A program made the translations under genes and the position numbers. A DNA stretch of 28,972 nucleotides from IMG/VR virus record IMGVR_UViG_3300002835_000086; one strand, given 5' to 3'. The notes under the pieces were generated by a model. It saw nothing but the letters and a program-made list of their open reading frames with translations, did not search any database and had not been told where the DNA came from. Of the stretch, positions 870 to 28,972 are shown in pieces. How positions within the stretch are numbered: position 1 is the stretch's first letter; every line of letters begins with the position of its first letter. This stretch comes from a virus (Duplodnaviria; Heunggongvirae; Uroviricota; Caudoviricetes).

Positions 870-883
870 AATAATATTTTTTT

Positions 884-2691: not shown

Positions 2692-2695
2692 TTTA

Positions 2696-3064
2696 TCAGT
2701 TTAATTTGAGTTTCCACTCTACTTTTTTTATGATGAAACTCCACTGGTTTATCCCAAATAACTCAATGTCCTTTCTTATTGCGTATTCCGCACATCTTCT
2801 AATCATTTTATTGAGTTTAACTTTAGAAATGTTGTGTGTAACTAAAATCTCAGACGTTAACCATTCAGAGTATCTGTTGTCAAGTCTGGCAAAGATTACT
2901 CCGTCGAAGATGATATCGATTTCATACACGTGAGGTCCGCCCTCATTGTATTTACGGACTTTTTTAACCTTTAAGGAACCATTGATTTTGTCATAGACAC
3001 TGAAAGGATATGATGCCATAACCTTGTTCAAGTAAGAAATGTGAGTGTCTTTGACCATTTTCAT
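2696..3064 (-). CDS. Hypothetical protein (~122 aa; start corrected from 3079 to 3064)
   Basis: The track's N-terminal MYLCT is the translated TATCTTTGTA promoter box; the next ATG (MKMVKD) is at 3064. Confidence 0.7.
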   Translation of the reverse strand: MKMVKDTHISYLNKVMASYPFSVYDKINGSLKVKKVRKYNEGGPHVYEIDIIFDGVIFARLDNRYSEWLTSEILVTHNISKVKLNKMIRRCAEYAIRKDIELFGINQWSFIIKKVEWKLKLN

Positions 3065-5861: not shown

Positions 5862-5866
5862 ATAAT

Positions 5867-5875
5867 ATTAAATAG
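5867..5875 (-). promoter_or_regulatory. Variant of putative late-gene upstream motif (CTATTTAAT)
   Basis: 5 nt upstream of the structural gene ATG; resembles GTTATTTAT at 8536 and 13603. Confidence 0.25.
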
Positions 5876-5890
5876 TTTTACAATATTTTT

Positions 5891-8529: not shown

Positions 8530-8535
8530 TTATCT

Positions 8536-8544
8536 ATAAATAAC
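8536..8544 (-). promoter_or_regulatory. Putative late promoter/upstream motif GTTATTTAT
   Basis: Exactly 6 nt upstream of ATG 8529; identical 9-mer with identical spacing at 13603-13611. Confidence 0.4.
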
Positions 8545-8558
8545 ATTTTTCATTTTTT

Positions 8559-13100: not shown

Positions 13101-13546
13101 GGATAACTCCAATTGTATGTTGAGTATGTGTCAGGTTGTACAATTACTGTATAACAAGTATTTTCGGGATTAGACCCACCAGGACTATTAAGTGATAAAT
13201 AAACAACCTCACCTAAAGTCCAAGATATAACACTGCCAGTATTAATCCTCCAATTAGCCCCACCACAACAAGGTTCCAAGTAATATTCAACATCAGAACA
13301 ATATTCTACAGATGTTATTTGTCCTCCACCGCCAGTTATAACATAAATAATTGTCCCATCATTTGGGTCTTGGTAAAACCCATCACTTGCAACTAAAGGA
13401 CCACAAGTTAATCCATCGTATAAGATAGTCCCAACTTGTAACACGGGAGTTATACCATCATCAAATGAAAATGAATCTATAAGTGGTGCAGTGCACGCAG
13501 TTACTTTAGAAGTTAAACTGTAATTTAAGGTAAGACCACTACACAT
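10166..13546 (-). CDS. Large Cys-rich modular putative virion protein with Pro/Thr linkers (1126 aa)
   Basis: Six modules each ending in (N/D)CxxC, separated by TP-rich linkers. Confidence 0.72.
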   Translation of the reverse strand: MCSGLTLNYSLTSKVTACTAPLIDSFSFDDGITPVLQVGTILYDGLTCGPLVASDGFYQDPNDGTIIYVITGGGGQITSVEYCSDVEYYLEPCCGGANWRINTGSVISWTLGEVVYLSLNSPGGSNPENTCYTVIVQPDTYSTYNWSYPLDGFTSYGVGTNCASCLSTEEIVCPTATPTPTSTNTPTPTPTPTEGYTIVSITNCDTFVTYTIDWGPSLPTPFDVFYIVFQNSIVPNGCYTYNGLSYNTPDDTPASKILYGDCESCSMSLLTQTPTQTASQTPTPTNTATNTPTQTPTNTTTTTPTQTPTNTATNTPTQTPTNTTTTTPTQTPTNTATNTPTQTPTNTATNTPTQTPTNTTTTTPTQTPTNTTTTTPTPTPTSTEPYDIYLFQDCCYGNYYRYENVPGTLTVGQVYSIIGGSGYNGCGTVVPYSAVGNLYSSVGVVFTLQVDCATCLISVPCVTPTPTVTPTNSQTPTVTPTNSQTATNTPTPTQTPTSTSTGTPTPTPTATGTGPQDSALLTKCSDGTIFYALVDTDTAFVGATYLYNGSCYSFVEFSGPGGPSLGVPSYSDCSSCVLTPTPTPTPNPTPTNTPTVSSTPSSCPYTEFCFRTNYPTLSGYSGNFEVAGTYNSRLYYTGDGITTGYIYHTGDVWCLSNSLGGTCLLEGTYPCYSICPDISSNYFSTGPCPTPTPSSVNCNTLDFTAYFDCDFVPFPTPTPSITCDNVTFSVTSIPSTPTPTPSTSTCAGDMSFSFSAYTPTTPSPTLTPTISPTRTVEVGGQLVYTFFEEAFTCPTSKVLKDCDSNLEFYVSDTLTFNGIPISIGTTFGGYVNGDLFCLTYDRNDSNTQPNSVLNSIVQLYANCTDCRFTLTPTPSVTASNTPTPTITPSPTMTPTASPADFVYVFQTCALNQSNYPQSTIMQTQPTNFAIMTGQTFQTVNGECWTYVGQFLNYYPAGQTILTYFTGNYFNLNKPTIYANCVDCLANPVVLITQTPGVTKTPGLTPTPSPLALCVTLSESIFRTGLPDQCGGYTRQDNQVTVTLRNGGTPYPAPTNVTVTIELSTSDCLGNGTTNLVISIPQGQTSASKTYTVTTCDICPSTNLNDTVTSIVDGIISITPSTITECN
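12423..12691. repeat. 36-bp tandem repeat, 7 units plus a partial, two alleles; encodes 12-aa TPTQTPTNT(TTT/ATN)
   Basis: Units start GTGTTTGAGT at 12445, 12481, 12517, 12553, 12589, 12625, 12661; allele order A,B,B',A,B,A,B. Confidence 0.92.
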
Positions 13547-13640: not shown

Positions 13641-13880
13641 ATGGTAGTTTATTCTATAATAAAGGTGTTGTTTGTAATATTTATAATTGTGAGACTAATA
13701 AAAACAATTAAGAAGGTTATTGAAGAGGCGGAGGACAGATATCTCTCAGCTTGTGATAATGGTGTGTCTTTAGAAGAATTGGATAAGTTAGAGGAAAATT
13801 ATAAAAAATCCTTAAAGCTTATGAATATGTTAGAGTCAAAAAAACTCAACGAGGACACTCAGAAAAATAAGAAATTATAA
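13641..13880 (+). CDS. Small hypothetical protein, N-terminal hydrophobic helix plus charged helical tail
   Basis: VVYSIIKVLFVIFIIVRLI then a Glu/Lys-rich segment; fills the gap between opposite-strand genes; stop shares the palindrome TTATAA with the kinase stop. Confidence 0.6.
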   Translation: MVVYSIIKVLFVIFIIVRLIKTIKKVIEEAEDRYLSACDNGVSLEELDKLEENYKKSLKLMNMLESKKLNEDTQKNKKL

Positions 13881-14660
13881 CCCTCTCAAATATTCTGTAT
13901 ATTTCTTATCAGGTAAGGAAACACCCTTTTTATTTACCACGTCAGAACAGACTTCATTCGCAAATAATATTGAACTTTTAATGTCATTTGTTTTAATAAA
14001 ATGTGACACAAATGAAGCGACAAATGTATCACCAGCCCCACTAACATCAATAGTTTCTTGAGGTTTGGGTGAACCGAAAACCTGTCCCATATACATCGCA
14101 CCTTTGGACCCTAAAGTCACAATAAATTTTTCATCGTGGTTATCAACAATTTCTTTATTATATGAATATTCAACCTCGTTTTGTTTAGTAAATGTAATAT
14201 TACCGATAACATTTTCATTTAATTTTTTCTTGGTGTCCAAAATAGATATTTTTGATAAAACCCCAATTTGATTAATTAAATTTTCACTTACATAACCTTT
14301 ATTATAGTCACTTATTATTACAATGTCAGATTCGGTAATAGTTTTTCTTTGGTCAGGCGATAAAAATAATATTGTATCACAAGGTTCAAGTTCACCATCA
14401 TCAACTCTTGTAATCATTTGATTACTTTTCTTTTCAACATAACGAGTCTTTTCGATTTTGTTTAATTGATGCCAATGTAATACTTCACTATCAGGTAATA
14501 ATGTTCTTAAATTTTCTACAACATTTCCCGCCATACCATTGTTGGTTGTTGAATATAACGGATTTAAAACAGGGACTGGTGCCTCAGGACACAATCTCTT
14601 AATATCACAATACACAAATCGGTCAACACACAGTTCACCTATCACTAAAATCTTTGCCAT
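13875..14660 (-). CDS. rfaE1: D-glycero-D-manno-heptose-7-phosphate kinase (HldE domain I, PfkB family)
   Basis: ILVIGELCVDRFVY..RLCPEAPVPVL, GMAGNV, ISDYNKG, VTLGSKG, DVSGAGDT match HldE kinase motifs. Confidence 0.88.
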   Translation of the reverse strand: MAKILVIGELCVDRFVYCDIKRLCPEAPVPVLNPLYSTTNNGMAGNVVENLRTLLPDSEVLHWHQLNKIEKTRYVEKKSNQMITRVDDGELEPCDTILFLSPDQRKTITESDIVIISDYNKGYVSENLINQIGVLSKISILDTKKKLNENVIGNITFTKQNEVEYSYNKEIVDNHDEKFIVTLGSKGAMYMGQVFGSPKPQETIDVSGAGDTFVASFVSHFIKTNDIKSSILFANEVCSDVVNKKGVSLPDKKYTEYLRGL

Positions 14661-15060
14661 AATTAATTATTTTTGTTGACGAATAACCGTCTAATTTATC
14701 GAAGTAAATTATATTTTTTGCGTTGTCCCCACCAATCACTTTTTTATCTTTGTAATCAGAACCCACAACTAATATGTCGGTTTCCCAATTTAAAATGTGT
14801 TGTGATAAGTCAAAGTCACAATCAAAACTAACAACACTTTCAACCCCATTTATTCTTGATAACTGATACATTCTATCAAGACAAGAATTGACAGGTCTTT
14901 GATTTCCTTTGAGTTCTTTAACTCTTCTATCGGTGTCAACACCAACCCTAAGTACACCTAAAGATGATGCGTATTCCAACATCTCTAAGTGACCTCTGTG
15001 TAAGACATCAAAGGTCCCATTAACCCAAACTTTTAATGGTTCAGACTGTCTCCTCTCCAT
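14635..15060 (-). CDS. rfaE2: Heptose-1-phosphate nucleotidyltransferase (HldE domain II)
   Basis: NGTFDVLHRGH (HxGH), VGVDTD..VKELKG..RPVN...RM, LVVGSDY, GYSSTKII. Confidence 0.85.
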   Translation of the reverse strand: MERRQSEPLKVWVNGTFDVLHRGHLEMLEYASSLGVLRVGVDTDRRVKELKGNQRPVNSCLDRMYQLSRINGVESVVSFDCDFDLSQHILNWETDILVVGSDYKDKKVIGGDNAKNIIYFDKLDGYSSTKIINYGKDFSDR

Positions 15061-15425
15061 ACTCGGTATGAATCTGAATCGTAGTGAGTGGTAGATACTT
15101 CATAGATTCTACCTTCGGTTAATGCAAACAATTGGTGTGGTTGACCAGGGTATTGTCTAACAGTGTCGCCCACCTTTAAAGTTTGTTGATGTAGTTCAGC
15201 AGTTTCAGTATCAATCCATTTGTATAGGAACTCCCCACTTTCAACATACCAAGTTTCATCTTTAATCATATGATAATGCATTGAGAACTGAGCCCCCTCT
15301 TTGAAGACTAGTACTTTACCGCAATATTTTTCATTATTCTCAAATATAATTTCGTGTCCCCATCCTTTAGGAACTTTACATTCAGAACATTCTTCTACAT
15401 TATACACGAGTGGTTTTTCCATCAT
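15033..15425 (-). CDS. Metal-binding cupin, sugar(-phosphate) isomerase-like
   Basis: KGWGHE, FSMHYHMIKDETWYVESG (HxH-x4-E), PGQPHQL (His), YEVST. Confidence 0.75.
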   Translation of the reverse strand: MMEKPLVYNVEECSECKVPKGWGHEIIFENNEKYCGKVLVFKEGAQFSMHYHMIKDETWYVESGEFLYKWIDTETAELHQQTLKVGDTVRQYPGQPHQLFALTEGRIYEVSTTHYDSDSYRVWRGDSLNH

Positions 15426-16178
15426 TTAAAAATTTAATACATCATAATTTAATTCTGAAATAAGATGGGTTAAATCTTTATCCGACTTAATCAAATCTTT
15501 CATTTCATCACTCAAATTTAATTCTTTATGTCTATGTTGTAAATTGTTATGTGTTGAGAATGAACTTCGTGAACCTCTAATTCCATTCAAACCATATCTA
15601 TCCTTAACACCAAAAGTTTCAAAAATAAACCTTTCTCTAACCTCTTTATTATCAATCCAATCTTCAAATTTTAAATACGAAACTTTATTTTCAACACAAG
15701 CCATTGCGTGACTTTTCCATCTTTTAATAAATTCACCGTCTACTTTGAATAGGTGAGGTTCATTAGTATCCCATTTAGTAAAAATTGTTTCATTGTTTGA
15801 CTTTATCCTTGATGATAGTAAATCATAAAAATTTCTTATGAAACATATTCTACCCATATGCTCTATGTCATACTCTCCGTTCATTTCTAATGATAGTGGT
15901 CCTTTAAAAATTCTATCTTCATTAAATAAAGTATAATCCCAAGGAGCATCCTCGTAGTTAACCATTATAGTATGAATATCATTCTTAAATTCTTTTAAGA
16001 ATTTAAAACTCAACGGTATGTCGTGATTGGCCTCACCCAAGTGATAAAACTTAGTCCCTGTGGCATTAATCATTTTGTAGACCCATTCAACTTGAAATCC
16101 AACCAAATTTCTTATTACCCAATTTTTCATAGAATGGTGTCCCGACCTACTTAAACTCATTGTTTCATAAACTTTCAT
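15426..16178 (-). CDS. Sulfotransferase-like protein
   Basis: N-terminal SLSRSGHHSMKNW (5'-PSB-like loop), FIRNFYDLLSSR (3'-PB-like), LKFEDW. Confidence 0.5.
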   Translation of the reverse strand: MKVYETMSLSRSGHHSMKNWVIRNLVGFQVEWVYKMINATGTKFYHLGEANHDIPLSFKFLKEFKNDIHTIMVNYEDAPWDYTLFNEDRIFKGPLSLEMNGEYDIEHMGRICFIRNFYDLLSSRIKSNNETIFTKWDTNEPHLFKVDGEFIKRWKSHAMACVENKVSYLKFEDWIDNKEVRERFIFETFGVKDRYGLNGIRGSRSSFSTHNNLQHRHKELNLSDEMKDLIKSDKDLTHLISELNYDVLNF

Positions 16179-16179
16179 A

Positions 16180-17001
16180 CTATTGTTCTAAATAATTTTT
16201 ATAATCTTTAATACCCATCTCAAGGTTCCAAGTAGGTTTCCACCCACCCATCCATTTATTTGAGTCGCTACAAGTATAAAACTGATATCCAACAGGTATT
16301 TTATCCTCGTCAGTGTATTCGTATTTAATCCCCATATTGTCCAAGACATCTTCAAAACCTCTCGCCTCTCCAAAACCAACTTCGTAATATTTTCCTTTCA
16401 ATCTTTGGTAATTTCCGAGGGCAAATAAATTTGCAGAAACAACGTCCTTCACATATACAAAATCTCTTTGTGGTTTTTTAGGGAACAATAAAATTTCTTT
16501 ACCTGTCCAAGCCCTCAAATGCATTTGATATGCAACTGAAGCCATTTTACCTTTTTGGTCTTCACCAGGTCCGTAAACATTAAAATATCTTAACGCAACC
16601 CCTCCATTTGAAATAACATATCCTTCGCCAGCGTATTTACTCCATCCGTATAGATTTGAAGGGTATTCATTATTAATACCATAATTTGCTGCTGATGATG
16701 AATAAATCATCGGACAATCATTTTCTTTACACCAATCCATAATGATTTTTGTTGACTCGTAATTTCTTGTCATCATATAATCAACATCTTGTTCTAAAGT
16801 ATCCGAACAGGCACCTACGTGAAAAACAACATCAGGATTAATTTCATTTAACTGTATTAACAATACTTTTGTCCAATTTTCTTGTGAAAAATAACTTTCA
16901 TCTAAACCGTAGACATCATACCCATTCTTTTTTAATTCATTTAATAGTGAGCGACCAATGAATCCTTTGTGTCCTGTAACAATAACTTTTTTCATATACA
17001 T
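16180..17001 (-). CDS. hldD: ADP-L-glycero-D-manno-heptose 6-epimerase (start may be 16995)
   Basis: VTGHKGFIG, HVGACSDT, YSSSAANYG, NLYGWSK (YxxxK), LRYFNVYGPGEDQKGKMASV, RDFVYVKDVV. Confidence 0.9.
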   Translation of the reverse strand: MYMKKVIVTGHKGFIGRSLLNELKKNGYDVYGLDESYFSQENWTKVLLIQLNEINPDVVFHVGACSDTLEQDVDYMMTRNYESTKIIMDWCKENDCPMIYSSSAANYGINNEYPSNLYGWSKYAGEGYVISNGGVALRYFNVYGPGEDQKGKMASVAYQMHLRAWTGKEILLFPKKPQRDFVYVKDVVSANLFALGNYQRLKGKYYEVGFGEARGFEDVLDNMGIKYEYTDEDKIPVGYQFYTCSDSNKWMGGWKPTWNLEMGIKDYKNYLEQ

Positions 17002-17047: not shown

Positions 17048-17449
17048 ATGTCATTCAGAATTAATACGCCAACAAAAATTTATGTAGATAAATCTCCTAT
17101 TCACGGATGGGGAGTCTTCGCGAGTGAGGACATTAACGAAGGAGAGTTAATTGAAGAGGTCCCTGTTTTGACATTACCAATTAACAAAGGTGAAGTTTCA
17201 GGACTGTTATTAGATTATCGGTTTAATTGGCCTCAAGGGGTTGAGTGGGAAGAACAAGTTGTTGGTTTAGGTTTTTCTAGTTTGTATAATCATAGTGAAA
17301 CCGCAAACGCTTATTGGATATCTGACTCAGATAAAAAAACCTTCAAATTCATATCACACCGAAATATATCTGCAGGTGAAGAAATATTCATTTGGTATGG
17401 TGATGTGAGTTATTGGAACGACGGTAGAAGTGAAATTAAAATAAAATAA
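17048..17449 (+). CDS. Minimal SET-domain protein-lysine methyltransferase
   Basis: KSPIHGWGVFA..DI..GELI, YNHS..AN, ISAGEEIFIWYG..YW. Confidence 0.88.
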   Translation: MSFRINTPTKIYVDKSPIHGWGVFASEDINEGELIEEVPVLTLPINKGEVSGLLLDYRFNWPQGVEWEEQVVGLGFSSLYNHSETANAYWISDSDKKTFKFISHRNISAGEEIFIWYGDVSYWNDGRSEIKIK

Positions 17450-17465: not shown

Positions 17466-18446
17466 TTAATAACCCAAATAAATTAAATTTCTATCAATAT
17501 CTTTAAATAAATTTGATAAATCATACTCACCATTATTATCTACCATCGATATACTTTTAACAGATAAAGAGTCTAAACCAATATCAATAATTTTATTTTT
17601 ATTCAATTGATATTCTTTAACCACACCGTCAACATTAATTTTAATATTTTGTGATTCAAGAAAATCATAAAAATAAAATCTAAGATTAGATGAGACATCT
17701 TTTTCAACTTTTTCGTCACCTTCAGATACCCAACAAGTTGTTGGTTGGTTTTTACTAATATACATTTTATAATTAGGATTCATAGAATAATTGAAAAATC
17801 CTCTGTCACCCCAATAATATATTTTATCTCTCACGGGTGTTTTAGATATATTAATTGGGAATAATTGTGTCCACAACAACGCCTGTCCTTCAGCAACTCC
17901 ATCCCATTTTAAATAATCATCTAATTTTATGACATCAACAATCTTACTCATTATTTCTCTATCAAATATCATAAAATGTAATGTACAATCCCACCAATCA
18001 TCTTCTTTGTTTGGGTTTATTCTTGGGTGAACTAAATTAGTTACGTCAGATTTTATTGTATCAATAACATATTGGTCTATCTCCAAATCATATATTATAT
18101 GATAAAAATAATCGTAATCATAACTGAGAGCAATTTGACTCATTTTCTTTATTTGATATAACCCAGCCCAACCATAATCCGCAACATTTCTATGCATAGT
18201 TATCCAACCCTCACTTGAATAATGTGTCTGCCAAAATGTAAAACCTCGTAAAGGCCAATTTAATAATGGATTTTCTTTAGTGAAAAACACAAAATCAGAA
18301 ATTTCTATAATTTCATTAGGTAATGTTATTGGACTAATCACTAAAGTATCTAATCCTAAACTTTTCAACACTTTAATGTTTTCACTTAAAATGTTAATTT
18401 TTTCTTGTGTATCGCAATAAGAACTTATTAAAACTATTTTTTTCAT
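17466..18446 (-). CDS. Orphan family A protein, possibly GT-A-like (paralog of 21978..22964)
   Basis: Shares LI(S/T)xYC...(K/R)xNIL, P..I...FxF..KxNxxLxxW and H(I)xYD with 21978..22964; glycan-cluster context. Confidence 0.5.
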   Translation of the reverse strand: MKKIVLISSYCDTQEKINILSENIKVLKSLGLDTLVISPITLPNEIIEISDFVFFTKENPLLNWPLRGFTFWQTHYSSEGWITMHRNVADYGWAGLYQIKKMSQIALSYDYDYFYHIIYDLEIDQYVIDTIKSDVTNLVHPRINPNKEDDWWDCTLHFMIFDREIMSKIVDVIKLDDYLKWDGVAEGQALLWTQLFPINISKTPVRDKIYYWGDRGFFNYSMNPNYKMYISKNQPTTCWVSEGDEKVEKDVSSNLRFYFYDFLESQNIKINVDGVVKEYQLNKNKIIDIGLDSLSVKSISMVDNNGEYDLSNLFKDIDRNLIYLGY

Positions 18447-20587
18447 AACATTTCTTTGAATCTATACTCTCTATCTTTTTCTTTAATTTCTTCAACATCC
18501 ATTTTAGTTAAAATTATACAATTTTTAAAATAAGTTATTGAAGATATTAGGTTATTATTTCTCATTCCACTAAACTCGGAATTAATTTTATGGGGTACCG
18601 TTGAAAAGTAATCAACAACATTGTGATTTCCAACCTCATATCCATATATGGTATTTTTCGGATTCCAATAATTACATTCAATATCTTCAATAATATAGAT
18701 ACCACCATTTTTTAACATTTTATCAAATAAAAAATTAAAGGTGTTGATTTGGTGTTCAGGTACATGGCTACCATCATCAATTATTATATCACATTCTCCA
18801 ATAAGATTTATCATTTTTTGTAAATCATCTTCATTATTTTGGTCGCCTTTGAATACAGTTCCATTATCGGTAACTTTTTCTTCATTAATATCCATTGAGA
18901 AGATTTGTCCGTTGTGAAAATATTCTTTCCACAAGTTGAAAGATGCATAATCTGACCCACATCCTATTTCAAATAGTTTAACTTTGGTTTCTCTTAAACC
19001 ACTTAAAAATTTATCATAAATCTTGTCAAACCTATGATGAATAACTTTATCAGTATTATGTTTCAAACCAAGTGAAAAAATATTGTTATTTCTTACCAAG
19101 ACAAGATTATTATCGTTGTGTGTCCAAGCCAAACTTATAAGTTCAAACGAAAAATTTTTATACTTATTTCTTAGTTTGGGTATCTCTTTTTCCCAACTAC
19201 CTAAATCAGATTCACAAATATCCTCAATAATATAATAACCACCTGAACTTAATCTATCTAATGAATTTTCTAAAAAAAATAAATTATATTTGAATTCGTG
19301 TAAACCGTCGTCAATAATAATATCCATTTTTTCACCAATTTCTAACCATAAATTTTTTATATCAGAAATTGACGTTTCATCACAATAAAACGTTTTAATT
19401 CTTTCCTCTTCAAATAAAGTATTTTTATCTATATCGGCACCATATATCTTAGCTCGAGTAAAATATTCTTTCCAACCTCTAAGAGAAGCCCCAGGAGTAC
19501 CCATATTACCCATATTGTAAGGTATCAAAACATTATTGGTTCCAATACCTAATTCAAAAATTTTTATTTCTTTATCTCTAATACTTTCAAAAAGTTGTGA
19601 ATATAATCTAGTATAATTGTGACCACCAAAATCAACCCAATCAGGTTTACTAGCTTTATCACTCTTGTGTTTATCCATGATAGAACACAACTCTGTTCTT
19701 TCATCAATTACGACTTGTTTGATTTCTTTGGGTGAAATAACTAAATCAACTAAATGGTCAATAACATCTTTAAATTTACTATAAGGTCTACAACAATTTA
19801 CATCTATGTAATAACCATTTTTTAATTTTTCTTCATCATAAATTCCAAATTTTTTTTGATTTTCTTTCTCACCTTCAAATTCTAATTCAACAGGAAAATT
19901 ATGTCTTTCGATTCTTCTATTCGCAATCCATGGACTAGTGTAACCTCTTTTTAATTTATGAACTTCAATACCATGATTTTTATTATTCACACAATCAGAA
20001 AAATAAAATTCATCAATCATCCACATATATCTATAACCTGGTTTATAATTTCCATGTCTATTTACAAAATCTTCAAAACTACAATCAGTATCCAATATTT
20101 TATTAAATACCTTTCCTTTAGCGGCGTTATATGGATAATTATACATTTCTTGAGTAAATGGAAAAGGTTCAGTTTCAAAAAGTTTTTTTGCTTCTAACCT
20201 ATTTAAATCATAAGCATCACTTGAGTAAATTACTAAACTATTATCACTGAAGTTTTTAATTTGATTTATAAAATATTCTTTATTAATCATTAACATGTCT
20301 AAATCACATGTTAAACAAACCTCGTCAGGAAAATACTTTGTCCCATACATTCTAGCAATACATGCTAATAAACCTGTATGAACAACATTACCTGTAATGT
20401 GGTCGTTAACTTTTTTAATTTTTTTTACTAAACCATTACCATCATAATAAAAGTCACTTTCTTCATCACATATAAAAAAAAGTACAGGTTCTATTTCTAA
20501 AATCTCTTTACAAATTTTAGCTTGGATAGGCCAAAACTCCAAAAAATATGAGTCGTCGACCCCAAATATTGCTTTATCTATTTTCAT
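18443..20587 (-). CDS. Three-domain fusion: family B GT-like domain plus two MycE/TylE-type sugar O-methyltransferase domains
   Basis: N-domain with CDLDM (DxD). MT1: DK..HNY..ELGIG..GASLRGWKEYF..YGADID..IIDDGLH..GGYYIIEDI. MT2: TDK..H..EIGCG..LWKEYF..IIDDGSH..GGIYIIEDI. Confidence 0.72.
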   Translation of the reverse strand: MKIDKAIFGVDDSYFLEFWPIQAKICKEILEIEPVLFFICDEESDFYYDGNGLVKKIKKVNDHITGNVVHTGLLACIARMYGTKYFPDEVCLTCDLDMLMINKEYFINQIKNFSDNSLVIYSSDAYDLNRLEAKKLFETEPFPFTQEMYNYPYNAAKGKVFNKILDTDCSFEDFVNRHGNYKPGYRYMWMIDEFYFSDCVNNKNHGIEVHKLKRGYTSPWIANRRIERHNFPVELEFEGEKENQKKFGIYDEEKLKNGYYIDVNCCRPYSKFKDVIDHLVDLVISPKEIKQVVIDERTELCSIMDKHKSDKASKPDWVDFGGHNYTRLYSQLFESIRDKEIKIFELGIGTNNVLIPYNMGNMGTPGASLRGWKEYFTRAKIYGADIDKNTLFEEERIKTFYCDETSISDIKNLWLEIGEKMDIIIDDGLHEFKYNLFFLENSLDRLSSGGYYIIEDICESDLGSWEKEIPKLRNKYKNFSFELISLAWTHNDNNLVLVRNNNIFSLGLKHNTDKVIHHRFDKIYDKFLSGLRETKVKLFEIGCGSDYASFNLWKEYFHNGQIFSMDINEEKVTDNGTVFKGDQNNEDDLQKMINLIGECDIIIDDGSHVPEHQINTFNFLFDKMLKNGGIYIIEDIECNYWNPKNTIYGYEVGNHNVVDYFSTVPHKINSEFSGMRNNNLISSITYFKNCIILTKMDVEEIKEKDREYRFKEML

Positions 20588-20598: not shown

Positions 20599-21435
20599 TT
20601 ATTTAGGGTTTGTTATGGACAATGCGATTTCAACTAAATTGTCAATAACTTTTTTATATTCAATATATGGTCTTGGACAATGAGCATCAATATAATATCC
20701 ATTTTTAAGTTTTTCCCAATCAAACACGCCATCGTTTAATTGAGCCGTAATCTCTAAATTATTATTTAATATTACGGGAAAATTATGTCTGTTAATTCTT
20801 TTTTCCGCTTTCCATGGAGAAGAATACCCTCTCTTAAATTTATGAACTTCAACACCATGAATATTTTCATTAACATTTTGACCAAAATAAATTTCATCAG
20901 TTCCCCACCCTAATTTCAACACTCCCAATTCATGAGCGTATTGACTGAATGGTCTATCAGTATCTAAAATTTTATTAAAAGTTGAACCTTTTCCAATATT
21001 GTAACAAATTGGGTATCTATTTTCACAAGGTTCATTATGATTTTGGCACTCTGGTCTTTCTAATGAGTATGCATCTTCATCTAAAATCACCAAAGAATTA
21101 TCATCAATATCTTTAATTTTATCAATAAACCAATCTCTGTTTATAATAATCATATCAATGTCATTGGTCATGCAAACATCATTTGGAAAATATTTTGTTC
21201 CATACATTCTAACAATTTGACTTAAAAACGAAGTGATAATACCTGGACAATTATTTCTATTTATTTTTTTTACAATTCCATTACCATCATCATAAAAATC
21301 ACTATCTTCATTTGTAATATGAAATAATACGGGTTGAGCATTAAATAATTTTTTAATTATTTTTGATTGGATTGGCCAAAAATTTTGGTATAATGGATTG
21401 TCATCCACACCAAAAATTACTTTATCTATCTTCAT
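20599..21435 (-). CDS. Family B putative DxD glycosyltransferase (paralog of the N-domain of 18443..20587)
   Basis: [48 protein letters not shown] shared between the two copies. Confidence 0.55.
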
Positions 21436-21977: not shown

Positions 21978-22964
21978 TTATTCGTTTACTCTAAAACTCA
22001 TTAGTTTAAAAATTTCCCTGTCTTCATCGGATTTTAAATAAAATGTATCCCTTATCACATCATTCTCTAACACAATAATGGAATTAATTTCTTCAAGTTT
22101 ACCTAAGAAAACAATATTCCAATGATAATGATGGACTAATGGTATGTGAACTAATTTTGAACCATTAATAATAATTTTATATTCCAAACCATTTTTATTA
22201 GTTGTATTCCATGATATGAAATCAACATTACCTGTTAAATGGTCGTAATACGGTAAAGACCATGGGTTTTTATTTATTGATTGACTATTAATAACACCAA
22301 AAAAATTACCTTTTTCTTCTAAAACATTTCTGTTTTTAACAACAACACTACCTGAGTCTTCAATTAACTTAAGTAATAAACCTTCAGGTGATTTTGATAT
22401 TGCACCTCTAATTAAATCTTTAATTTTATCTTCATCCAATTCAATTAACATTGAATGTATTTTTGGGATATAGTATGATTGAAAACTACCGAACATTACT
22501 TCCGCAACTTTATCTTGGATGTCCATATAAACCACTGCACTATTTGTTTCTAATAAATCACTGTTTTCAACAAACTCGGATATTTCATTGATTTGACAAT
22601 CATACTCTATATGGTGAACTTTAGTAAACCCTAAGTTTTTAGCATTACTAAAACCTAAAATCATTAATCTCCATATAGCTAAGTGAGTGTTTTTTTTACT
22701 TAGAAAAGATGATTGGATTCTTCTGTTTCCTTCAGGTACAAACCAAGGTTGGTTTAATAAATCCCAATCAGTTAATATTTCATTTTTCTTATCATAGAAT
22801 GAAAATTCTACTTTATTTTGAATATCAATCGGTACTGGTGTATGACTAACAATCATTACCTCAAAATAATCTTTATATTTTTCTAATGAAGAAACTAAAT
22901 TCCTTAAAATATTTTCTCTATTATCATCAGGACAATACGCGGTAATTAAAATCAAATCTTTCAT
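21978..22964 (-). CDS. Orphan family A protein, possibly GT-A-like (paralog of 17466..18446)
   Basis: [17 protein letters not shown]; HHIEYD; see paralog. Confidence 0.5.
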
Positions 22965-23542
22965 TATTTAATATTTTTTGTGGGAACACCTCCATATACA
23001 CCAGGTGATTCAATATGTTTGACAACCGCACTATTCATACCAATTGTTACCAAACTATGTATTGATAATTTTTCTCGGATTGAGGAATTATTACCCATAT
23101 AAACAAGGTCGTATATTTTTACATTACCAGACACAATTGCACCTGGCATTGCACTAAAGTAATCACCAATTTCACAATCGTGACCAATATGGTTACCTCT
23201 ATTTAAAATTGCGTGTTTACCTATTTTTATATTTGTAGTTAGTATTGAATATGCACCAACAAAACTACCTTCTCCGATTTCAATGTTGTTATCCATAATT
23301 AACACTGTTGGATGAACCCAAGTAAAATATTTAGTCTCCTTGGGTAGTCTTTGGATAATATCAAATCTATCTCTTGAATCTGCAACCGCAACCATTATCG
23401 CATATTCTTTGGGGTTAAACTCAGATAGTGGTCTTGTTCCTTCTACAACATATTTGTCATCAACAAAACAAGTCAATTCCACCCCCATTTGAGCCATCAC
23501 CTCTTTAGCGTGACCACCATATCCAACTAATGCTTTTTTCAT
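22964..23542 (-). CDS. PglD/NeuD-family sugar N/O-acetyltransferase
   Basis: GYGGHAKEV N-terminal motif, WVHPT, left-handed beta-helix hexapeptides (IGEGSFVG, IGKHAILN, IGHDCEIG), GVPTK. Confidence 0.85.
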   Translation of the reverse strand: MKKALVGYGGHAKEVMAQMGVELTCFVDDKYVVEGTRPLSEFNPKEYAIMVAVADSRDRFDIIQRLPKETKYFTWVHPTVLIMDNNIEIGEGSFVGAYSILTTNIKIGKHAILNRGNHIGHDCEIGDYFSAMPGAIVSGNVKIYDLVYMGNNSSIREKLSIHSLVTIGMNSAVVKHIESPGVYGGVPTKNIK

Positions 23543-24183
23543 TGTTTATAAACGTCAAATTTAGATAAGTCAGGATATGGTAATTCTAAATCCTGATTAT
23601 GTTTTTTCGAACCGTCAATATTATAAAACTGATTCATCAACAGCATCCCTCTTGCCGCCAACTCAGGCATCATATAAAAGTTCCAACCAATCATATCCAA
23701 GTAATCATCGTGATATGAACATTCTCTTCTTCCACTATAACGAGCTCTCTTAAACCAATGATAAGCATCCAAACTATCCGTCAAAATTGCACCACCCTTA
23801 CTAAGTTTAAAATGTTTATAAGGTCCAGTAAAAGAAACACAAATGTGTTGGTCAGGTTTATACATATCGGCAGTAAAACTTAGTGCTGAGTCCCAAACAT
23901 TACTTCCTTTTAGTTGGTACATACCTTTAATTGTTTTACCCTCAACAGGTTCAAAATCAACCTTTAGCCCTGCGTGAATAATCTCACAAGGAACCGATGG
24001 GTATGTTCTACAAGGAATTGTTATCTTATCTGAAGTAATACTTTTCTTAACATTTTTTTCATAATATAACGCCAAGAACAAAGCGTTACTCATATTATCG
24101 AGAGTCACCACATACGGAGCTCCCGTATAATCTGCAAGTGCCTTCTCGAAATCTTCTGTAATTTTATAAATACCGTTTGCCAT
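23539..24183 (-). CDS. DegT/DnrJ/EryC1/StrS PLP-dependent sugar aminotransferase, short form (214 aa)
   Basis: FEKALADYTGAPYVV, TYPSVP, WDSA (PLP Asp), SFTGPYKHF...GGAIL (PLP Lys), GWNFYM. Confidence 0.78.
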   Translation of the reverse strand: MANGIYKITEDFEKALADYTGAPYVVTLDNMSNALFLALYYEKNVKKSITSDKITIPCRTYPSVPCEIIHAGLKVDFEPVEGKTIKGMYQLKGSNVWDSALSFTADMYKPDQHICVSFTGPYKHFKLSKGGAILTDSLDAYHWFKRARYSGRRECSYHDDYLDMIGWNFYMMPELAARGMLLMNQFYNIDGSKKHNQDLELPYPDLSKFDVYKQ

Positions 24184-24239: not shown

Positions 24240-26531
24240 ATGGAAAAACCAAAAATTTATCTTCACGGTTCTTATATTGGAACAACAGGTTACAATAACC
24301 ACACTCGTGATTTTTTAAGAGAATTAGTTAAACACACACCTGTTAAGGTTAGAAACTTTACTGTTGGTAGCACTTGGGATGGTTATAATCCAACCCCCCA
24401 CGATAACGAACCATACATTAATGATGTTGATAAATCAATGTTGTATAAACAAATTTTATACAACTCTGAAGGTAAGTTATCAGATTACGATATCTACCCT
24501 GACAAATCAAAAGAGTTTTTTCCTGATGTGAATATTGTATTGAGTGAGACTAATCACCATATATTCTATCACGATTATATTGGTCCAAAGATTGCTTATA
24601 ACGTATGGGAATCTACTCTTCAACCTAAAGAGTTTTTCAATGAACTTTTGAAATACGATGAGATTTGGGTTCCGAGTAAATGGCAAATGGAATGTACCAT
24701 CAACCAAGGTGCAACCCCTGATAAAGTTAAGGTGGTCCCTGAGGGTGTCGATATCCATACATTCTTCCCTGAAGATGTTGAGAAATTGGAACAATACAAT
24801 GATGGTAGATTTAAATTCTTATTATTTGGTCGATGGGATTATAGAAAATCAACCAAGGAGATTATTGAAACTTTCTTGAAAACATTTTCTTCGGATGAAC
24901 CTGTGGATTTGGTTGTATCGATTGACAATATGTGGGGTGAAGAGATGGATGGTTATAAAACCACCGAAGAAAGATTGGTAGGTTATGGTTTAACAGACCC
25001 AAGAATCAAAATGATTCACTTCCCAACTCGTGAGGATTATATCAAATACCTTAAAACAGGACACGTATTTGTTTCTTGCGCACGTTCTGAAGGATGGAAT
25101 CTACCTCTTATTGAAGCGATGGCTTGTGGTACCCCATCTATTTATTCAGAGTGTTCTGCTCAAATGGAGTTTGCTGAAGGTAGAGGTATTCCTGTTAAGA
25201 TTATAGGTGAAAAACTTGCAAGCGCAAATGACTACGGTAGATATACAATGAGTGATTTACCAGGAAACTATTACGAACCTGATTTTGTGGACTTGTCAAG
25301 ACAGATGAGATATACGTATGAGAACTATAAAGAATGTAAATTAAAAGCCGTTCAAGACTCAATAGAAATTCATAAAGAATTCTCTTGGGAACGAATTGGT
25401 GAGATTGGTTACAAAACAGTTGTTGATTTTATGAAAAATTATAAATCCACTGATGCGGATACCAATAAAATTATGGTTTCATATCTTGATGGTCCAAAAG
25501 TTGAAATTGTGGGTGCTGAAGACAGAACTTATTTAATTGAGTTTTTGGATGAAAATGATGCTGTAATTCATTCACATACAATGAAAAATAATCATTGGGT
25601 TCAATGTGGTAGAAAATATTACACCAAATGGAAAATCCGTGTTAATGGTAAAATTGTTGAGGAGTTAGATTTAACAGGAAAAAGAGTTTTAATCTCTTTT
25701 GAATCAAAATCAATTGGTGATACAATTGCTTGGGCACCTTACGCTGTTGAGTTTCAAAAGAAACATAACTGCCAAGTTATTCTAAGCACATTTCATAACA
25801 AATGGTTTAAACAAAACCCTAACTATCAGGATATTGAATTTATCGAACCTGGTATGGTCACAAATTGTCACGCACTTTATAGGATTGGTTGGATTAAATC
25901 TGACGAAGGTAAGTGGAACAAATATGATTCTTACCCTAACCCGATTCAAACTTTACCATTACAACAAACTGCAACAGACATCCTTGGTTTAAATTATGTT
26001 GAAAGAAACTACGGTTTATACTTTGATGTTAAACCGAGAACAATCAAAAACAAATATGTTGTTTTAGCCCCCGAGTCGACTGCAGGTTGTAAAGAATGGA
26101 CTTATGAAGGGTGGTGTTATTTGACAGACCAATTAATTAAAAAAGGTTATGAAGTCGTCATTTTAACAACAAAACCATATCAAGTAAAAGGTGCAAAATG
26201 TATTCACGGTAAACCATTAAACGACGCTCTTAATATCCTTTATCATTCAGAATTCTTGGTTTCGCCAAGTTCAGGTATGGCTTGGATGAATTGGGGTGTT
26301 GGTAAACACACTGTAATGATTAGTGGATTTACACCTAAACATCACGAGTTCCAAACTAATATTACAAGAATTATTAATGAACATTCTTGTAACTCTTGTT
26401 GGGCAAATATCAACTTTAAGTTTGACCCAGGAGATTGGGATTGGTGTCCAATTTGGAAAGGTACCGAAAAACAACACATTTGTGAAAAATCAATTTCGCC
26501 ACTAACAGTTCTTAATAGTTTACCAATATGA
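24240..26531 (+). CDS. Fusion of GT4 glycosyltransferase and Aah/TibC-type autotransporter O-heptosyltransferase
   Basis: N-half: TTGY, VWE, VPSKWQ, PEGVD, GRWDYRK, EGWNLPLIEAMACG (GT4). C-half from ~25473: N-terminal barrel ending RKYYTKWKI, RVLISFESKSIGDTIAWAPY..FQKKHNC, ESTAGCKEW, SSGMAW, ISGFT, CNSCW-x15-C-x11-C four-Cys iron finger. Confidence 0.88.
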   Translation: MEKPKIYLHGSYIGTTGYNNHTRDFLRELVKHTPVKVRNFTVGSTWDGYNPTPHDNEPYINDVDKSMLYKQILYNSEGKLSDYDIYPDKSKEFFPDVNIVLSETNHHIFYHDYIGPKIAYNVWESTLQPKEFFNELLKYDEIWVPSKWQMECTINQGATPDKVKVVPEGVDIHTFFPEDVEKLEQYNDGRFKFLLFGRWDYRKSTKEIIETFLKTFSSDEPVDLVVSIDNMWGEEMDGYKTTEERLVGYGLTDPRIKMIHFPTREDYIKYLKTGHVFVSCARSEGWNLPLIEAMACGTPSIYSECSAQMEFAEGRGIPVKIIGEKLASANDYGRYTMSDLPGNYYEPDFVDLSRQMRYTYENYKECKLKAVQDSIEIHKEFSWERIGEIGYKTVVDFMKNYKSTDADTNKIMVSYLDGPKVEIVGAEDRTYLIEFLDENDAVIHSHTMKNNHWVQCGRKYYTKWKIRVNGKIVEELDLTGKRVLISFESKSIGDTIAWAPYAVEFQKKHNCQVILSTFHNKWFKQNPNYQDIEFIEPGMVTNCHALYRIGWIKSDEGKWNKYDSYPNPIQTLPLQQTATDILGLNYVERNYGLYFDVKPRTIKNKYVVLAPESTAGCKEWTYEGWCYLTDQLIKKGYEVVILTTKPYQVKGAKCIHGKPLNDALNILYHSEFLVSPSSGMAWMNWGVGKHTVMISGFTPKHHEFQTNITRIINEHSCNSCWANINFKFDPGDWDWCPIWKGTEKQHICEKSISPLTVLNSLPI

Positions 26532-27274
26532 TAGATTTATCAAACTTTGATTGGGGATGGATGAATCGTCCTGTTGAATACGATGTTGATGGTCAAGTAG
26601 AATATCTTTGGCACATAAATCCTAATGGGTCTAAAACTCATATGAGTGAATATCACAAAAACTCAATAATCAAAGAAATTTTTGAAGATAAATGTTACGA
26701 ACAATTTTTTGAGGTTGAGGAGGGTGATACTGTTTTAGATGTTGGTGCGAGTGTTGGTCCATTTACATATTCAATATTACACAAAAAACCAAAACAAGTT
26801 TATTGTTTTGAACCAAGCGAAAGAGAGTTTAAAACTTTGGTTAAAAACCTAAAGGGTCATCAAGTAATACCAATCCCAAAAGGTATATCAAATGTAAGCT
26901 CAATCGTTAAAAGTGATATGTTGTTTGGTGGCGAGGATGAAATGGAAACACTAACATTTAATCGTTTTATAAATCTGTACAACGTAGATAAAATAGATTT
27001 TATTAAGACTGATTGTGAGGGTGGTGAATATGATATTTTCACTCAAGATAATTTAGACTTTCTTCAAAATAATGTTAAAAAAATTGTTGGTGAGTGGCAT
27101 TTAAGAAGTCCCCAACTTAAAGATAAGTTTAGAAATTTCAGGGATAATATATTACCATACTTTAAACGATATAAAATATTTTCTGTTGATGGTATTGATA
27201 TTGCTTGGGATTTGTGGAACGACCATTTCATTGAGTATTATAATGAGGTCATAATACACATTGATAATCGTTAA
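26528..27274 (+). CDS. FkbM-family SAM methyltransferase
   Basis: VLDVGASVGPFT, YCFEP, DFIKTDCEGGEYDI; ATGA-coupled to the heptosyltransferase. Confidence 0.85.
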   Translation: MIDLSNFDWGWMNRPVEYDVDGQVEYLWHINPNGSKTHMSEYHKNSIIKEIFEDKCYEQFFEVEEGDTVLDVGASVGPFTYSILHKKPKQVYCFEPSEREFKTLVKNLKGHQVIPIPKGISNVSSIVKSDMLFGGEDEMETLTFNRFINLYNVDKIDFIKTDCEGGEYDIFTQDNLDFLQNNVKKIVGEWHLRSPQLKDKFRNFRDNILPYFKRYKIFSVDGIDIAWDLWNDHFIEYYNEVIIHIDNR

Positions 27275-27314: not shown

Positions 27315-28970
27315 TTATTCCTGTATCGGTTTGTATTCTAACAGAACCTTTGGAACATCCTTACGTTCTGCGAAGACTGTGTAGAAACAATTTGGAGTTC
27401 CATCTTGACAGTTGATGTAAACCTTATTGTTTTCAATCTTCTCAACCCAATGAACACAAGGTCCTCCGATTGGTGTGAGTTGGACTGACCAATCTGTGTC
27501 GTGAACAAGTCCTACCCAATAATCAGGGAGTTCAATCACTTTACTTGTTGCGTGTCCTCTGAAATAAACTCCATGTTCTGGACCTTCCAAGTTTCCATAT
27601 CTTAATCTCCACCCTTCTTTAGTTGGGTGAGGGATGTCGAACGATTTACTGTTTGCAGATATATTATTAAAGTTATTGATGTTTGCAACACCACCACCTT
27701 GGATGTTACCAACCGCAGCACTCATGTCAATATCACCACCAACAAGGACAATATTACCACCCGCAACTTCAACATTTCCACCATTGGTATCAATGGTTCC
27801 ACCGCCAGTGTCAATTCCACCTCCCGTAGTACTCAAGGTCGTACCGTCCCACGTTAAGTTGGTTTCTGCATTTAATTCACCCGCGGTGTTACTACCTGTA
27901 ATAACTCTATTATCAGCGTTATTGTTGATAGTTGCTGCTCCTGAAGTACCCGATGAACCACTTGAGCCAGATGTTCCTGATGAACCTGAAGTACCACTTG
28001 AGCCAGATGTTCCTGATGAACCTGAAGTTCCACTTGAACCTGATTTACCTGAAGAACCTGAGCTTCCGCTAGTTCCTGAAGAACCACTTGAGCCAGATGT
28101 TCCTGAAGAACCACTTGAACCTGATGTTCCTGAACTTCCTGAAGTACCAGATGAACCTGATGTTCCCGAACTTCCTGAAGTACCGCTTGAACCACTTGAG
28201 CCAGATGTTCCTGAACTTCCTGAAGTACCGCTTGAACCTGATGTTCCCGAACTTCCGCTAGTTCCTGATGAACCACTTGAGCCAGATGTTCCTGAACTTC
28301 CTGAAGTACCAGATGAACCTGATTTACCTGAAGAACCTGAGCTACCACTAGTTCCTGAAGAACCACTTGAGCCAGATGTTCCCGATGAACCACTTGTTCC
28401 ACTTGAACCTGAACTTCCGCTTGTTCCTGAAGAACCACTTGAACCTGAAGTACCAGATGAACCTGATGTACCTGATGAACCACTTGAACCGCTAGTTCCT
28501 GAAGAACCTGATGTACCTGATGAACCTGAGCTTCCGCTAGTTCCTGATGAACCTGAGCTACCTGATGTACCAGAACTTCCTGAAGTACCAGATGAACCTG
28601 AAGAACCACTTGTTCCACTTGAACCTGATGTACCACTTGAACCTGAGCTTCCGCTAGTTCCTGATGAACCACTTGAGCCAGATGTTCCCGAACTTCCTGA
28701 AGTACCAGATGAACCTGAAGTACCACTTGAACCTGAAGAACCGCTAGTTCCTGATGAACCTGAAGTACCACTTGAACCTGAAGTACCACTTGAACCTGAG
28801 CTTCCGCTAGTTCCTGATGAACCACTTGAGCCAGATGTTCCTGAAGAACCTGAAGTACCACTTGAGCCAGATGTTCCTGATGAACCTGATTTACCACTTG
28901 AACCAGAACTTCCTGAAGTACCACTTGAACCTGAAGAACCGCTAGTTCCTGATGAACCTGAAGTACCACT
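27315..28970 (-). CDS. Tail fibre-like protein, 5' end beyond window; (Gly-X-Ser)n shaft, INNNADNRVIT neck, Gly-rich heptads, conserved C-terminal KxFxIxHP...LEGPE domain
   Basis: The frame of track ORF 27315..27836 continues upstream without stop: ...SGTSGSSGTSG AATINNNADNRVITGSNTAGELNAETNLTWDGTTL STTGGGIDTGGG...KSFDIPHPTKEGWRLRYGNLEGPEHGVYFRG. At least 551 aa. Confidence 0.85.
   Translation of the reverse strand, partial: SGTSGSSGTSGSSGSSGTSGSSGSSGKSGSSGTSGSSGTSGSSGTSGSSGSSGTSGSSGSSGTSGSSGTSGSSGTSGSSGSSGTSGSSGTSGSSGTSGSSGSSGTSGSSGSSGTSGSSGTSGSSGSSGTSGSSGTSGSSGSSGTSGSSGSSGTSGSSGTSGSSGSSGTSGSSGTSGSSGSSGTSGSSGSSGTSGSSGTSGSSGSSGTSGSSGSSGKSGSSGTSGSSGTSGSSGSSGTSGSSGTSGSSGTSGSSGTSGSSGSSGTSGSSGTSGSSGTSGSSGTSGSSGSSGTSGSSGSSGTSGSSGSSGKSGSSGTSGSSGTSGSSGTSGSSGTSGSSGSSGTSGAATINNNADNRVITGSNTAGELNAETNLTWDGTTLSTTGGGIDTGGGTIDTNGGNVEVAGGNIVLVGGDIDMSAAVGNIQGGGVANINNFNNISANSKSFDIPHPTKEGWRLRYGNLEGPEHGVYFRGHATSKVIELPDYWVGLVHDTDWSVQLTPIGGPCVHWVEKIENNKVYINCQDGTPNCFYTVFAERKDVPKVLLEYKPIQE
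27939..28970 (-). repeat. Gly-X-Ser triplet array (GSS/GTS, rare GKS), at least 114 triplets
   Basis: Gly codons from 28967 to 27941 in a 9-nt register (1026/9 = 114); no Pro seen. Confidence 0.95.
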
Positions 28971-28972
28971 TG

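Follow-up and report, generated by a model that had tools for sequence, protein, structure and literature searches.

IMG/VR record IMGVR_UViG_3300002835_000086 is a 28,972-nucleotide stretch of tailed-phage DNA, called the window here in its full length, which encodes a 763-residue protein joining a glycosyltransferase of family 4 (GT4) to a relative of TibC and Aah, the autotransporter heptosyltransferases (BAHTs) of Escherichia coli. We think it fairly probable that this fusion works in the cytoplasm as a bifunctional protein O-glycosyltransferase, putting sugars on the collagen-like fibre of the phage itself while virions are assembled. The gene sits inside a 13-kb glycan cluster and its product divides as follows.

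24240..26531, + strand: GT4 and TibC-like fusion gene, 763 amino acids (open reading frame and translation, domain matches, AlphaFold2 model)
24240..25448, + strand: retaining GT4 domain of GT-B type, residues 1-403 (PF00534, phrog_2170, Foldseek)
24828..24851, + strand: GRWDYRKS, predicted GT4 phosphate-binding Arg198 and Lys203 (Arg in 66 of 69 and Lys in 69 of 69 aligned homologues)
25089..25115, + strand: EGWNLPLIE, GT4 E-x7-E motif with Glu284 and Glu292 (both Glu in 69 of 69-70 aligned homologues)
25449..26531, + strand: TibC/Aah-like domain, residues 404-763, with beta-barrel, GT-B core and Cys4 finger (TIGR04414, PDB 4RAP, Foldseek)

The N-terminal half is matched by Glycos_transf_1 (PF00534) over residues 187-310 (E 1.1e-9, 38.5 bits against a cutoff of 26.4) and, in a profile search, by the glycosyltransferase phrog_2170 over residues 14-388 (E 8.6e-28). 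Together with the intact motif residues, these matches bear out the complete GT4 domain that an original prediction, made from the sequence alone, had placed in the first ~410 residues. The C-terminal half reaches 221.7 bits with the hidden Markov model TIGR04414 (hepto_Aah_TibC), above its curated equivalog cutoff of 200, across residues 408-759 and model positions 9-369 of 374, and so passes the check that had been proposed for it; TibC (PDB 4RAP) aligns to residues 404-754 with an E value of 5.5e-38. An AlphaFold2 model of the fusion protein, computed from an alignment of 110 sequences, has a mean pLDDT of 93.5, and the first 21 Foldseek matches in the PDB are all TibC chains (TM-score 0.81-0.83 by target, E ~1e-30), followed for the N-terminal half by MshA, the PBCV NY2A chlorovirus glycosyltransferase 3oy2, HepE, PimA and SdgB. 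The modelled protomer agrees with the BAHT fold in its flattened N-terminal beta-barrel, its atypical GT-B catalytic core and its inserted Cys4 finger; the barrel of the TibC layout is there as foreseen, with seven strands at residues 410-475. Judged from its sequence, then, the protein is a GT4 fused to a true TibC/Aah relative in a tailed phage, as had been claimed. The GT4 half is also weakly similar (~25%) to glycosyltransferases of Streptomyces phages.

One way in which the claim could have failed was a better match to the lipopolysaccharide (LPS) heptosyltransferases of family GT9. The LPS models give the fusion protein 19.1 bits (TIGR02193), 11.9 bits (TIGR02201) and 15.1 bits (NF007742), against cutoffs of 185, 170 and 467, and PF01075, the GT9 family and a distant parent, gives 20.3 bits, under its cutoff of 22. 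Since the LPS models reach just 12-19 bits beside the 221.7 of TIGR04414, the GT9 objection falls and the reading as an LPS heptosyltransferase is rejected. The same scores bear on the idea that the enzyme acts on the host, on its LPS core or on surface proteins like autotransporters, so that receptors are masked or superinfection is excluded. There are well-known phage glycosyltransferases that change the glycans of the host surface (PMC12619734), and the distant descent from GT9 agrees with such a role; the scores themselves speak against it, as does the position of the gene among virion genes, where it tracks fibre genes across phages, and the window holds no autotransporter or AIDA-repeat gene. 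We regard a host target as improbable.

The active site can be read against TibC, whose residues have been assigned by structure and mutation (PMC4358343): Asp110 is the catalytic base, Thr226 and Lys230 contact the beta-phosphate of the donor, Arg286 its adenine (an Ala mutant is crippled) and Trp305 the heptose O4. Pro300 governs stereoselectivity and is Ser in AAH, which accepts ADP-L,D-heptose; Cys339, Cys342, Cys358 and Cys370 bind a ferric iron; and mutation of Phe265 and Val266 in the thumb hairpin, or of Phe368, breaks the dodecamer and abolishes activity on TibA (PMC4358343). For this comparison one alignment took in the window protein, 144 cluster representatives and three genuine BAHTs from plasmids. 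The corresponding elements are these.

25710..25721, + strand: SIGD, with Asp494 at the TibC Asp110 position (alignment to 4RAP and to 4RB4, D110A; Asp in 144 of 144 relatives)
26076..26099, + strand: STAGCKEW, with Thr and Lys at the Thr226 and Lys230 positions (Lys in 143 of 144, Thr or Ser in 144 of 144)
26160..26213, + strand: short loop in place of the beta-hairpin thumb, 9-10 residues missing (9-residue gap in the TibC alignment)
26262..26285, + strand: SPSSGMAW, with Ser at the Pro300 position and Trp at that of Trp305 (alignment; Trp in 144 of 144)
26388..26483, + strand: C717-x2-C720-x15-C736-x11-C748, at the positions of Cys339, Cys342, Cys358 and Cys370 (kept in 137-138 of 144)

SIGD, STAGCKEW and the C-x2-C-x15-C-x11-C finger lie exactly where they had been predicted, and the Cys4 finger, its ligands conserved, may bind iron. 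At the Pro300 position, where the window protein has Ser, the 144 relatives have Ser in 69 cases and Gly in 66. The thumb is a different matter. Its region spans 16 residues in the window protein against 26 in all three genuine BAHTs; the columns of the thumb tip are gapped in 134-144 of the 144 relatives; and the AlphaFold2 model has no projecting hairpin at that point. The Phe368 position carries His in the window protein and Phe in 123 of 144 relatives. By these residues the window enzyme is a TibC relative with an intact predicted active site, standing on a thumbless branch. The likeness to Aah and TibC therefore holds for the catalytic Asp, the donor Lys and the four Cys and stops at quaternary structure: because the thumb hairpin is missing, a TibC-type dodecameric ring is unlikely to form, and the description of Aah and TibC as Fe-containing dodecamers should not be carried over to the phage enzyme. 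A paired prediction with two copies of residues 404-763 (score 0.00, mark 0.32) gives no verdict on dimerisation either way.

BAHT genes normally adjoin the gene for their substrate (PMC4358343), and so it is here for the three plasmid BAHT genes (L321-L323), each of which lies directly upstream of an AIDA-repeat gene. The repetitive neighbour of the phage enzyme is of another kind.

27315..28972, - strand: collagen-like fibre gene and proposed acceptor, its 5' end past the window (PF01391, E 2.3e-50; tail-fibre PHROGs)

The fibre consists of at least 115 Gly-(Ser/Thr)-Ser triplets, wholly free of Pro, followed by a C-terminal globular domain. Its Y position is Ser in 114 of the 115 triplets, its X position Ser or Thr, and the Y-position Ser always precedes Gly. 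TibC modifies Ser, not Thr, at sites such as Asn-Ser313-Gly-Gly, and accepts synthetic peptides as well (PMC4358343). It is because TibC acts on Ser-Gly sites, and every Y-position Ser precedes Gly, that the fibre is proposed on chemical grounds. With no autotransporter gene in the window, the acceptor class would differ from that of the known BAHTs, and the new class that had been anticipated finds a candidate in the neighbouring repeat: the acceptor is likely to be the proline-free Gly-X-Ser collagen-like fibre, not an autotransporter.

Two features of the fibre gene are worth recording for their own sake. In its C-terminal part (27315-27836, -), the repeat is followed by a Gly-rich stretch, TTGGGIDTGGGTIDTNGGNVEVAGGNIVLVGGDIDM, that resembles a short beta-helix, and then by a globular domain with matches to phrog_17490 and phrog_28536. 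The Gly-rich stretch has a Gly-Gly-x-hydrophobic pattern, loosely like that of AIDA-type repeats, and might offer the enzyme another site to glycosylate. The collagen repeat itself (27634-28972) has several open frames on its two strands, among them 27634-28971 (+, 446 amino acids) and 27872-28969 (-, 365 amino acids), and so gene callers easily pick a wrong frame; matches to the Collagen Pfam model and to tail-fibre PHROGs come from the Gly-X-Ser frame alone.

The pairing of enzyme and fibre recurs. In a synteny comparison of 79 IMG/VR loci and the Microcystis phage Mel-JY01, a collagen-like Gly-(Ser/Thr/Asn)-Ser open reading frame is found near the enzyme across related loci, in varying arrangements. 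In the window (784 bp) and its close relatives it is convergent and lies 784-786 bp downstream. Ten loci of a clade at 55-59% identity have it upstream on the enzyme's own strand, at 67-68 bp; in two loci the upstream distance is about 4.2 kb, and in Mel-JY01 it is 1.7 kb. One further locus (L084) has a GT2/GT34-TibC enzyme of 46% identity 3.3 kb from a GTSGSS-type open reading frame.

A reciprocal test supports this coupling from the side of the repeat. Viral contigs were picked solely by a DNA pattern of three Gly-[ST]-Ser triplets, and the 19 long records among them (66-299 kb) were searched with TIGR04414. The domain is present in 15 of the 19, in 14 of them above the cutoff, and all four near-complete genomes are positive. 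As controls we took 43 viral records picked by a Gly-Pro-X collagen repeat pattern, where TIGR04414 finds nothing (0/43, with 0/11 near-complete genomes and 0/16 records of at least 57 kb); the Fisher p value for Gly-X-Ser against Gly-Pro-X records is 4e-11 overall and 2e-6 when size-matched. The collagen open reading frame lies within ~4 kb of the enzyme in 10 of the 15 positives, and in two it is 25-40 bp away. A GT4 domain belongs to only three of these 15 enzymes, the coupling holding whatever the other domains may be. In the forward direction, 13 of 25 fusion-bearing records carry the repeat pattern, including both of those at least 80% complete, and the negatives are all at most 40% complete. 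A test on short chunks (a TibC-like gene in 5 of 76 Gly-X-Ser chunks) was superseded by the whole-record search because the chunks were short and not centred on the repeat.

The same comparisons bear on whether the enzyme acts instead, or in addition, on a second group of candidate substrates. At 5891-13546 (-) the window encodes four consecutive, mucin-like proteins of a "beads on a string" design, in which small Cys-rich domains alternate with long (Thr-Pro), TPTN and TPTQ linkers; one of the four has SprB repeats. Pro/Thr linkers are classic sites of O-glycosylation, the proteins flank the glycan cluster and reach 60% Ser plus Thr in 60-residue stretches, and the GT4 half could accept Thr. 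TibC-type enzymes, however, modify Ser and not Thr, which predominates in these linkers, and the reciprocal association is one with Gly-X-Ser repeats. Moreover, the four proteins have no homologues in any of the 80 related loci, from which it follows that they do not travel with the enzyme and are specific to this phage lineage. As the main acceptor they are set aside, and glycosylation of these proteins, alone or along with the fibre, is in our view unlikely.

A role of the glycan cluster, the fusion enzyme included, in hypermodifying the phage DNA with sugars is the least credible of the alternatives. Virus-encoded glycosyltransferases that act on DNA are diverse, according to work cited in PMC12619734, which gives the idea its footing; here the fold and the catalytic residues are those of a protein-Ser heptosyltransferase, profile scans of the window showed no hydroxymethyl-pyrimidine pathway genes, and the coupling is to fibre genes. 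We give it hardly any weight.

If the fibre is the acceptor, the sugar can be approached through the same cluster, which holds a heptose-type operon at 13875-17001, about 7-10 kb from the fusion gene.

13875..14660, - strand: HldA-like heptose-7-phosphate kinase, corresponding to a split HldE domain I (best NCBIfam match TIGR02198, 112 bits, cutoff 345)
14635..15060, - strand: HldC-like heptose-1-phosphate adenylyltransferase, corresponding to a split HldE domain II (best match TIGR02199, 86.9 bits, cutoff 181.5)
16180..17001, - strand: HldD-like ADP-glycero-manno-heptose 6-epimerase (best match TIGR02197, 193 bits over the full length, cutoff 274.6)

HldD-like genes (174-203 bits) occur in 8 of 44 phage records chosen for TibC or Gly-X-Ser and in none of 26 controls (p = 0.02), and among all these records comparable matches are confined to TibC-positive phages. 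The residue at the Pro300 position may point the same way: it is Ser, the AAH-like state that takes ADP-L,D-heptose, in all eight HldD loci, in agreement with a phage HldD, while loci lacking HldD have two Ser and three Gly; the loci are few and related, and we take this as a hint and no more. Taken together, the family assignment, the invariant heptose and phosphate contacts, the HldA/HldC/HldD-like operon and the Ser at the Pro300 position make heptose the favoured donor in the window phage. Co-occurrence of an adenylyltransferase (9 of 44 against 2 of 26) is not significant at p = 0.19, for which reason it is not used as support.

Two observations on these genes stand apart. Between the HldC-like and HldD-like genes, at 15033-16178 (-), lie genes for a cupin of 130 residues and for a 250-residue protein without a family match, a pair kept in the same place in the closest relatives (L003-L005), which might replace the GmhA and GmhB steps or tailor the heptose. 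In the records behind L007 and L006, the HldD-like gene (203 bits; G066:C1:1385-2185 and G086:C1:18015-18815) has one in-frame TGA within the match, for which codon recoding, the same sequencing error in both contigs and decay into a pseudogene are candidate explanations.

Several points weigh against the reading of the enzyme as a fibre heptosyltransferase. On the side of the acceptor, the folded beta-helix recognised by TibC has little in common with a collagen chain. The clade at 64-70% identity has no collagen gene within 10 kb of the enzyme on its contigs, which are at most 40% complete. The association counts take no account of shared ancestry, and the controls may differ in habitat or phage group. 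On the side of the donor, the kinase, adenylyltransferase and epimerase all score below the equivalog cutoffs, though an ADP-heptose family is the top match for each, and the window yielded neither gmhA nor gmhB. An HldD-like gene is absent from all five near-complete TibC-positive phage genomes (0/5), so that heptose is not proven for the family as a whole; phages with TibC and no HldD may rely on ADP-heptose made by the host, or donors may differ within the family. Finally, the Arg286 position is Ala in the window protein and varies among relatives (Thr, Arg, Val, Ile or Ala), in contrast to the Arg of all three genuine BAHTs, and for this reason recognition of the donor nucleotide may differ from that in TibC.

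The donor-side points are those on which another explanation can be built, namely that the TibC-like half does glycosylate the fibre, with a donor other than ADP-heptose, and that the heptose genes serve some other transferase of the cluster. The altered adenine contact would fit, as would the absence of HldD from most TibC-positive records, the near-complete ones among them, and the adenylyltransferase-like gene that does not rise above controls. Against this, the positions of Trp305 and Lys230 are near-invariant (143-144 of 144) and that of Thr226 is Thr or Ser throughout, the TIGR04414 cutoff is exceeded, and HldD-like genes keep to TibC-positive records whose loci all have the L,D-tolerant Ser. 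Gram-negative hosts, besides, can supply ADP-heptose. We consider a different donor unlikely, if somewhat less so than the (Thr-Pro)n substrates.

The mechanism that we propose for the fibre as acceptor and heptose as sugar would run as follows. The split HldE kinase and adenylyltransferase of the phage would top up the pool of ADP-heptose, and HldD would convert it to the L,D form. The TibC-like half would then transfer heptose from ADP-heptose to Ser hydroxyls, with Asp494 as the catalytic base and the Y-position Ser residues of the Gly-(Ser/Thr)-Ser repeats in the fibre (27315-28972) as the most likely sites. The retaining GT4 half would add a second sugar, onto the heptose or onto other Ser/Thr residues; the two domains may prime and extend, as the original prediction had suggested, the order of the two transfers being part of the same proposal. 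The FkbM-family methyltransferase, translationally coupled to the fusion, would probably methylate the glycan.

We also put forward, tentatively and with more doubt than belief, a larger idea: that dense heptosylation of the Y-position Ser takes the place of hydroxyproline and stabilises a wholly proline-free triple helix, that the whole kit for doing so is phage-borne, and that the adhesin enzymes of enteric pathogens are a thumb-gaining offshoot of a larger family of phage fibre glycosylases. The kit in question comprises the ADP-heptose supply, the thumbless and non-dodecameric TibC-like transferase, the second transferase and the methyltransferase.

The enzyme is far from rare. The full-length fusion is represented by more than 120 metagenome clusters at 64-100% identity and is common in aquatic phage metagenomes; many of these clusters already bear the automatic name "autotransporter strand-loop-strand O-heptosyltransferase". 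The TibC-like domain by itself returns 1326 clusters at 50% identity, whose top matches are mostly multidomain proteins of 600-2000 residues. Among 64 representatives the other domains are GT4 in 19, FkbM in 10 and GT2 in five, and the GT4 subtype of the window occurs in 32 of 150 representatives, at times with extra domains in between; there is also a split form, with overlapping GT4 and TibC genes beside a tail sheath gene. In a domain tree built with FastTree from a reduced sequence set, the collagen-adjacent enzymes are scattered over both halves, and a single clade on a long branch, with 100% support, unites the genuine BAHTs. On this evidence the fusion represents a family widespread in environmental phages, in whose diversity the enzymes of pathogens make up a single clade, one that bears the thumb. 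The notion of a bacterial-pathogen-type enzyme in a phage thus survives as to enzyme type; the picture of a one-off import from a pathogen does not.

The nearest isolate is Mel-JY01 (L001, PP395634.1), in which a coding sequence of 1226 residues (4750-8430), annotated as "methyltransferase FkbM", is a GT4-FkbM-TibC-like triple fusion. A + frame at 2-3052 of this phage holds 149 Gly-Thr/Ser-Ser triplets, and the annotated coding sequences 1-651 and 739-2298 are on the opposite strand; with several frames of the repeat open, these may have been called on the wrong strand. In another locus (L082, 1638-9275), a GT4-TibC-PIG-L triple fusion, PIG-L being a de-N-acetylase, stands beside a Glyco_transf_25 gene and a PhyH-type dioxygenase. 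Glyco_transf_25 is the family of the animal collagen galactosyltransferases, and the 12-kb L082 contig has no collagen-like open reading frame. Literature searches on TibC or heptosyltransferases with phages or collagen, and on Mel-JY01, found no paper on such a system.

As to the setting, profile searches find in the window a primase, an exonuclease, a RuvC-like gene and tail-fibre PHROGs, which mark it as a tailed phage, and a related contig carries terminase, RecA-like, DnaB and Mre11/Rad50-like genes. When 25 kb of the window were compared with isolated phages by megablast, nothing matched, so this is a phage without a close cultured relative. The immediate neighbours of the fusion gene are the following.

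26528..27274, + strand: FkbM-family methyltransferase (PF05050, TIGR01444), its start overlapping the stop of the fusion gene by 4 nucleotides
22964..23542, - strand: NeuD/PglD-type sugar N-acetyltransferase (TIGR03570, 146 bits)
23539..24183, - strand: short DegT-like protein, 214 amino acids (PF01041)

The FkbM gene is syntenic with the fusion in 15 loci, and the enzyme itself contains a fused FkbM domain in 10 of 64 relatives as well as in Mel-JY01. The NeuD/PglD-type and DegT-like genes adjoin the fusion in 10 related loci. The DegT-like protein matches only positions 24-97 of the 360 in the aminotransferase profile, that is, the N-terminal part, and because the same short form is kept in relatives it may not be an aminotransferase. 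Other members of the cluster are harder to place. A SET-domain protein at 17048-17449 (+; PF00856, E 2.6e-15), also found near the fusion in six related loci, would be a protein lysine methyltransferase in a glycan and structural region, which our account of the cluster leaves unexplained. Proteins of 714 residues (18443-20587, -) and 278 residues (20599-21435, -) have a paralogous N-terminal domain of ~270 residues in common, without a family match, and the longer one runs on into two apparent methyltransferase domains; the shared domain may be an unrecognised transferase fold.

Comparison with known systems brings out what is familiar here and what is not. With TibC and Aah (PDB 4RAP, 4RB4; PMC4358343) the phage domain is ~28-34% identical and shares the fold, the catalytic Asp, the Thr, Lys and Trp contacts and the four Cys, and its gene adjoins that of a highly repetitive, Ser-rich protein just as BAHT genes adjoin AIDA-repeat genes. 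Unlike these enzymes, it has neither thumb nor Phe368, has Ala for Arg286, is fused behind a GT4 and is encoded by a phage; its neighbour is a proline-free collagen-like fibre instead of a beta-helical autotransporter, and the BAHTs are separate from it in the tree. The GT4 half resembles in fold the enzymes SdgA/SdgB of Staphylococcus aureus and GtfA/GtfB of streptococci, GT4 proteins that O-glycosylate Ser in Ser-Asp or serine-rich repeats. SdgB, a GT4 acting on Ser in a dipeptide repeat, is the one that Foldseek returned for this half. The Gtf enzymes glycosylate Ser densely along a short tandem repeat, with one transferase for each of two steps, and the logic proposed for the phage enzyme is the same. 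In contrast to the phage protein, both pairs use UDP-GlcNAc on bacterial cell-wall adhesins, and identity to it is just 12-13%.

Glycosylated collagen-like proteins also have precedents. BclA of the Bacillus anthracis exosporium carries O-glycans on GPT repeats, BclA3 of Clostridioides difficile is served by SgtA, and in the cuticle collagen of Riftia the Y position bears galactosyl-Thr, whose sugar stabilises the triple helix in place of hydroxyproline. The phage fibre has in common with them a Gly-X-Y repeat with a hydroxy amino acid in Y, and its glycan is predicted; those systems differ in their enzymes and sugars, and the phage repeat in lacking any Pro and in having Ser as its Y residue.

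Virion glycosylation as such is known from mycobacteriophages, whose glycosyltransferases modify the C-termini of their own capsid and tail-tube subunits (Freeman et al. 2023, PMC10527164, cited in PMC12619734). Both systems aim at the phage's own structural proteins, which for the fibre is a prediction; the mycobacteriophage system, as that citing account presents it, has no TibC-like domain, heptose pathway or collagen-like acceptor. If our reading is true, phage virions would be glycosylated in a second way, of a different chemistry, and the TibC/Aah family would gain a new acceptor class, collagen-like repeats in place of beta-helical autotransporters. Indeed the pathogen enzymes would then be a small branch of a mostly phage-borne family. 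Heptosylation of the fibre would give a reason for ADP-heptose genes in phages and offers a testable answer to the question of how a collagen-like helix can be stable without Pro or hydroxyproline. The effect on the fibre may reach further: a coat of glycans on it could change how abundant aquatic phages recognise hosts, withstand proteases and are grazed on or recognised by immune systems. As a cultured carrier exists in Mel-JY01, and the enzyme should function in E. coli, the idea is directly testable.

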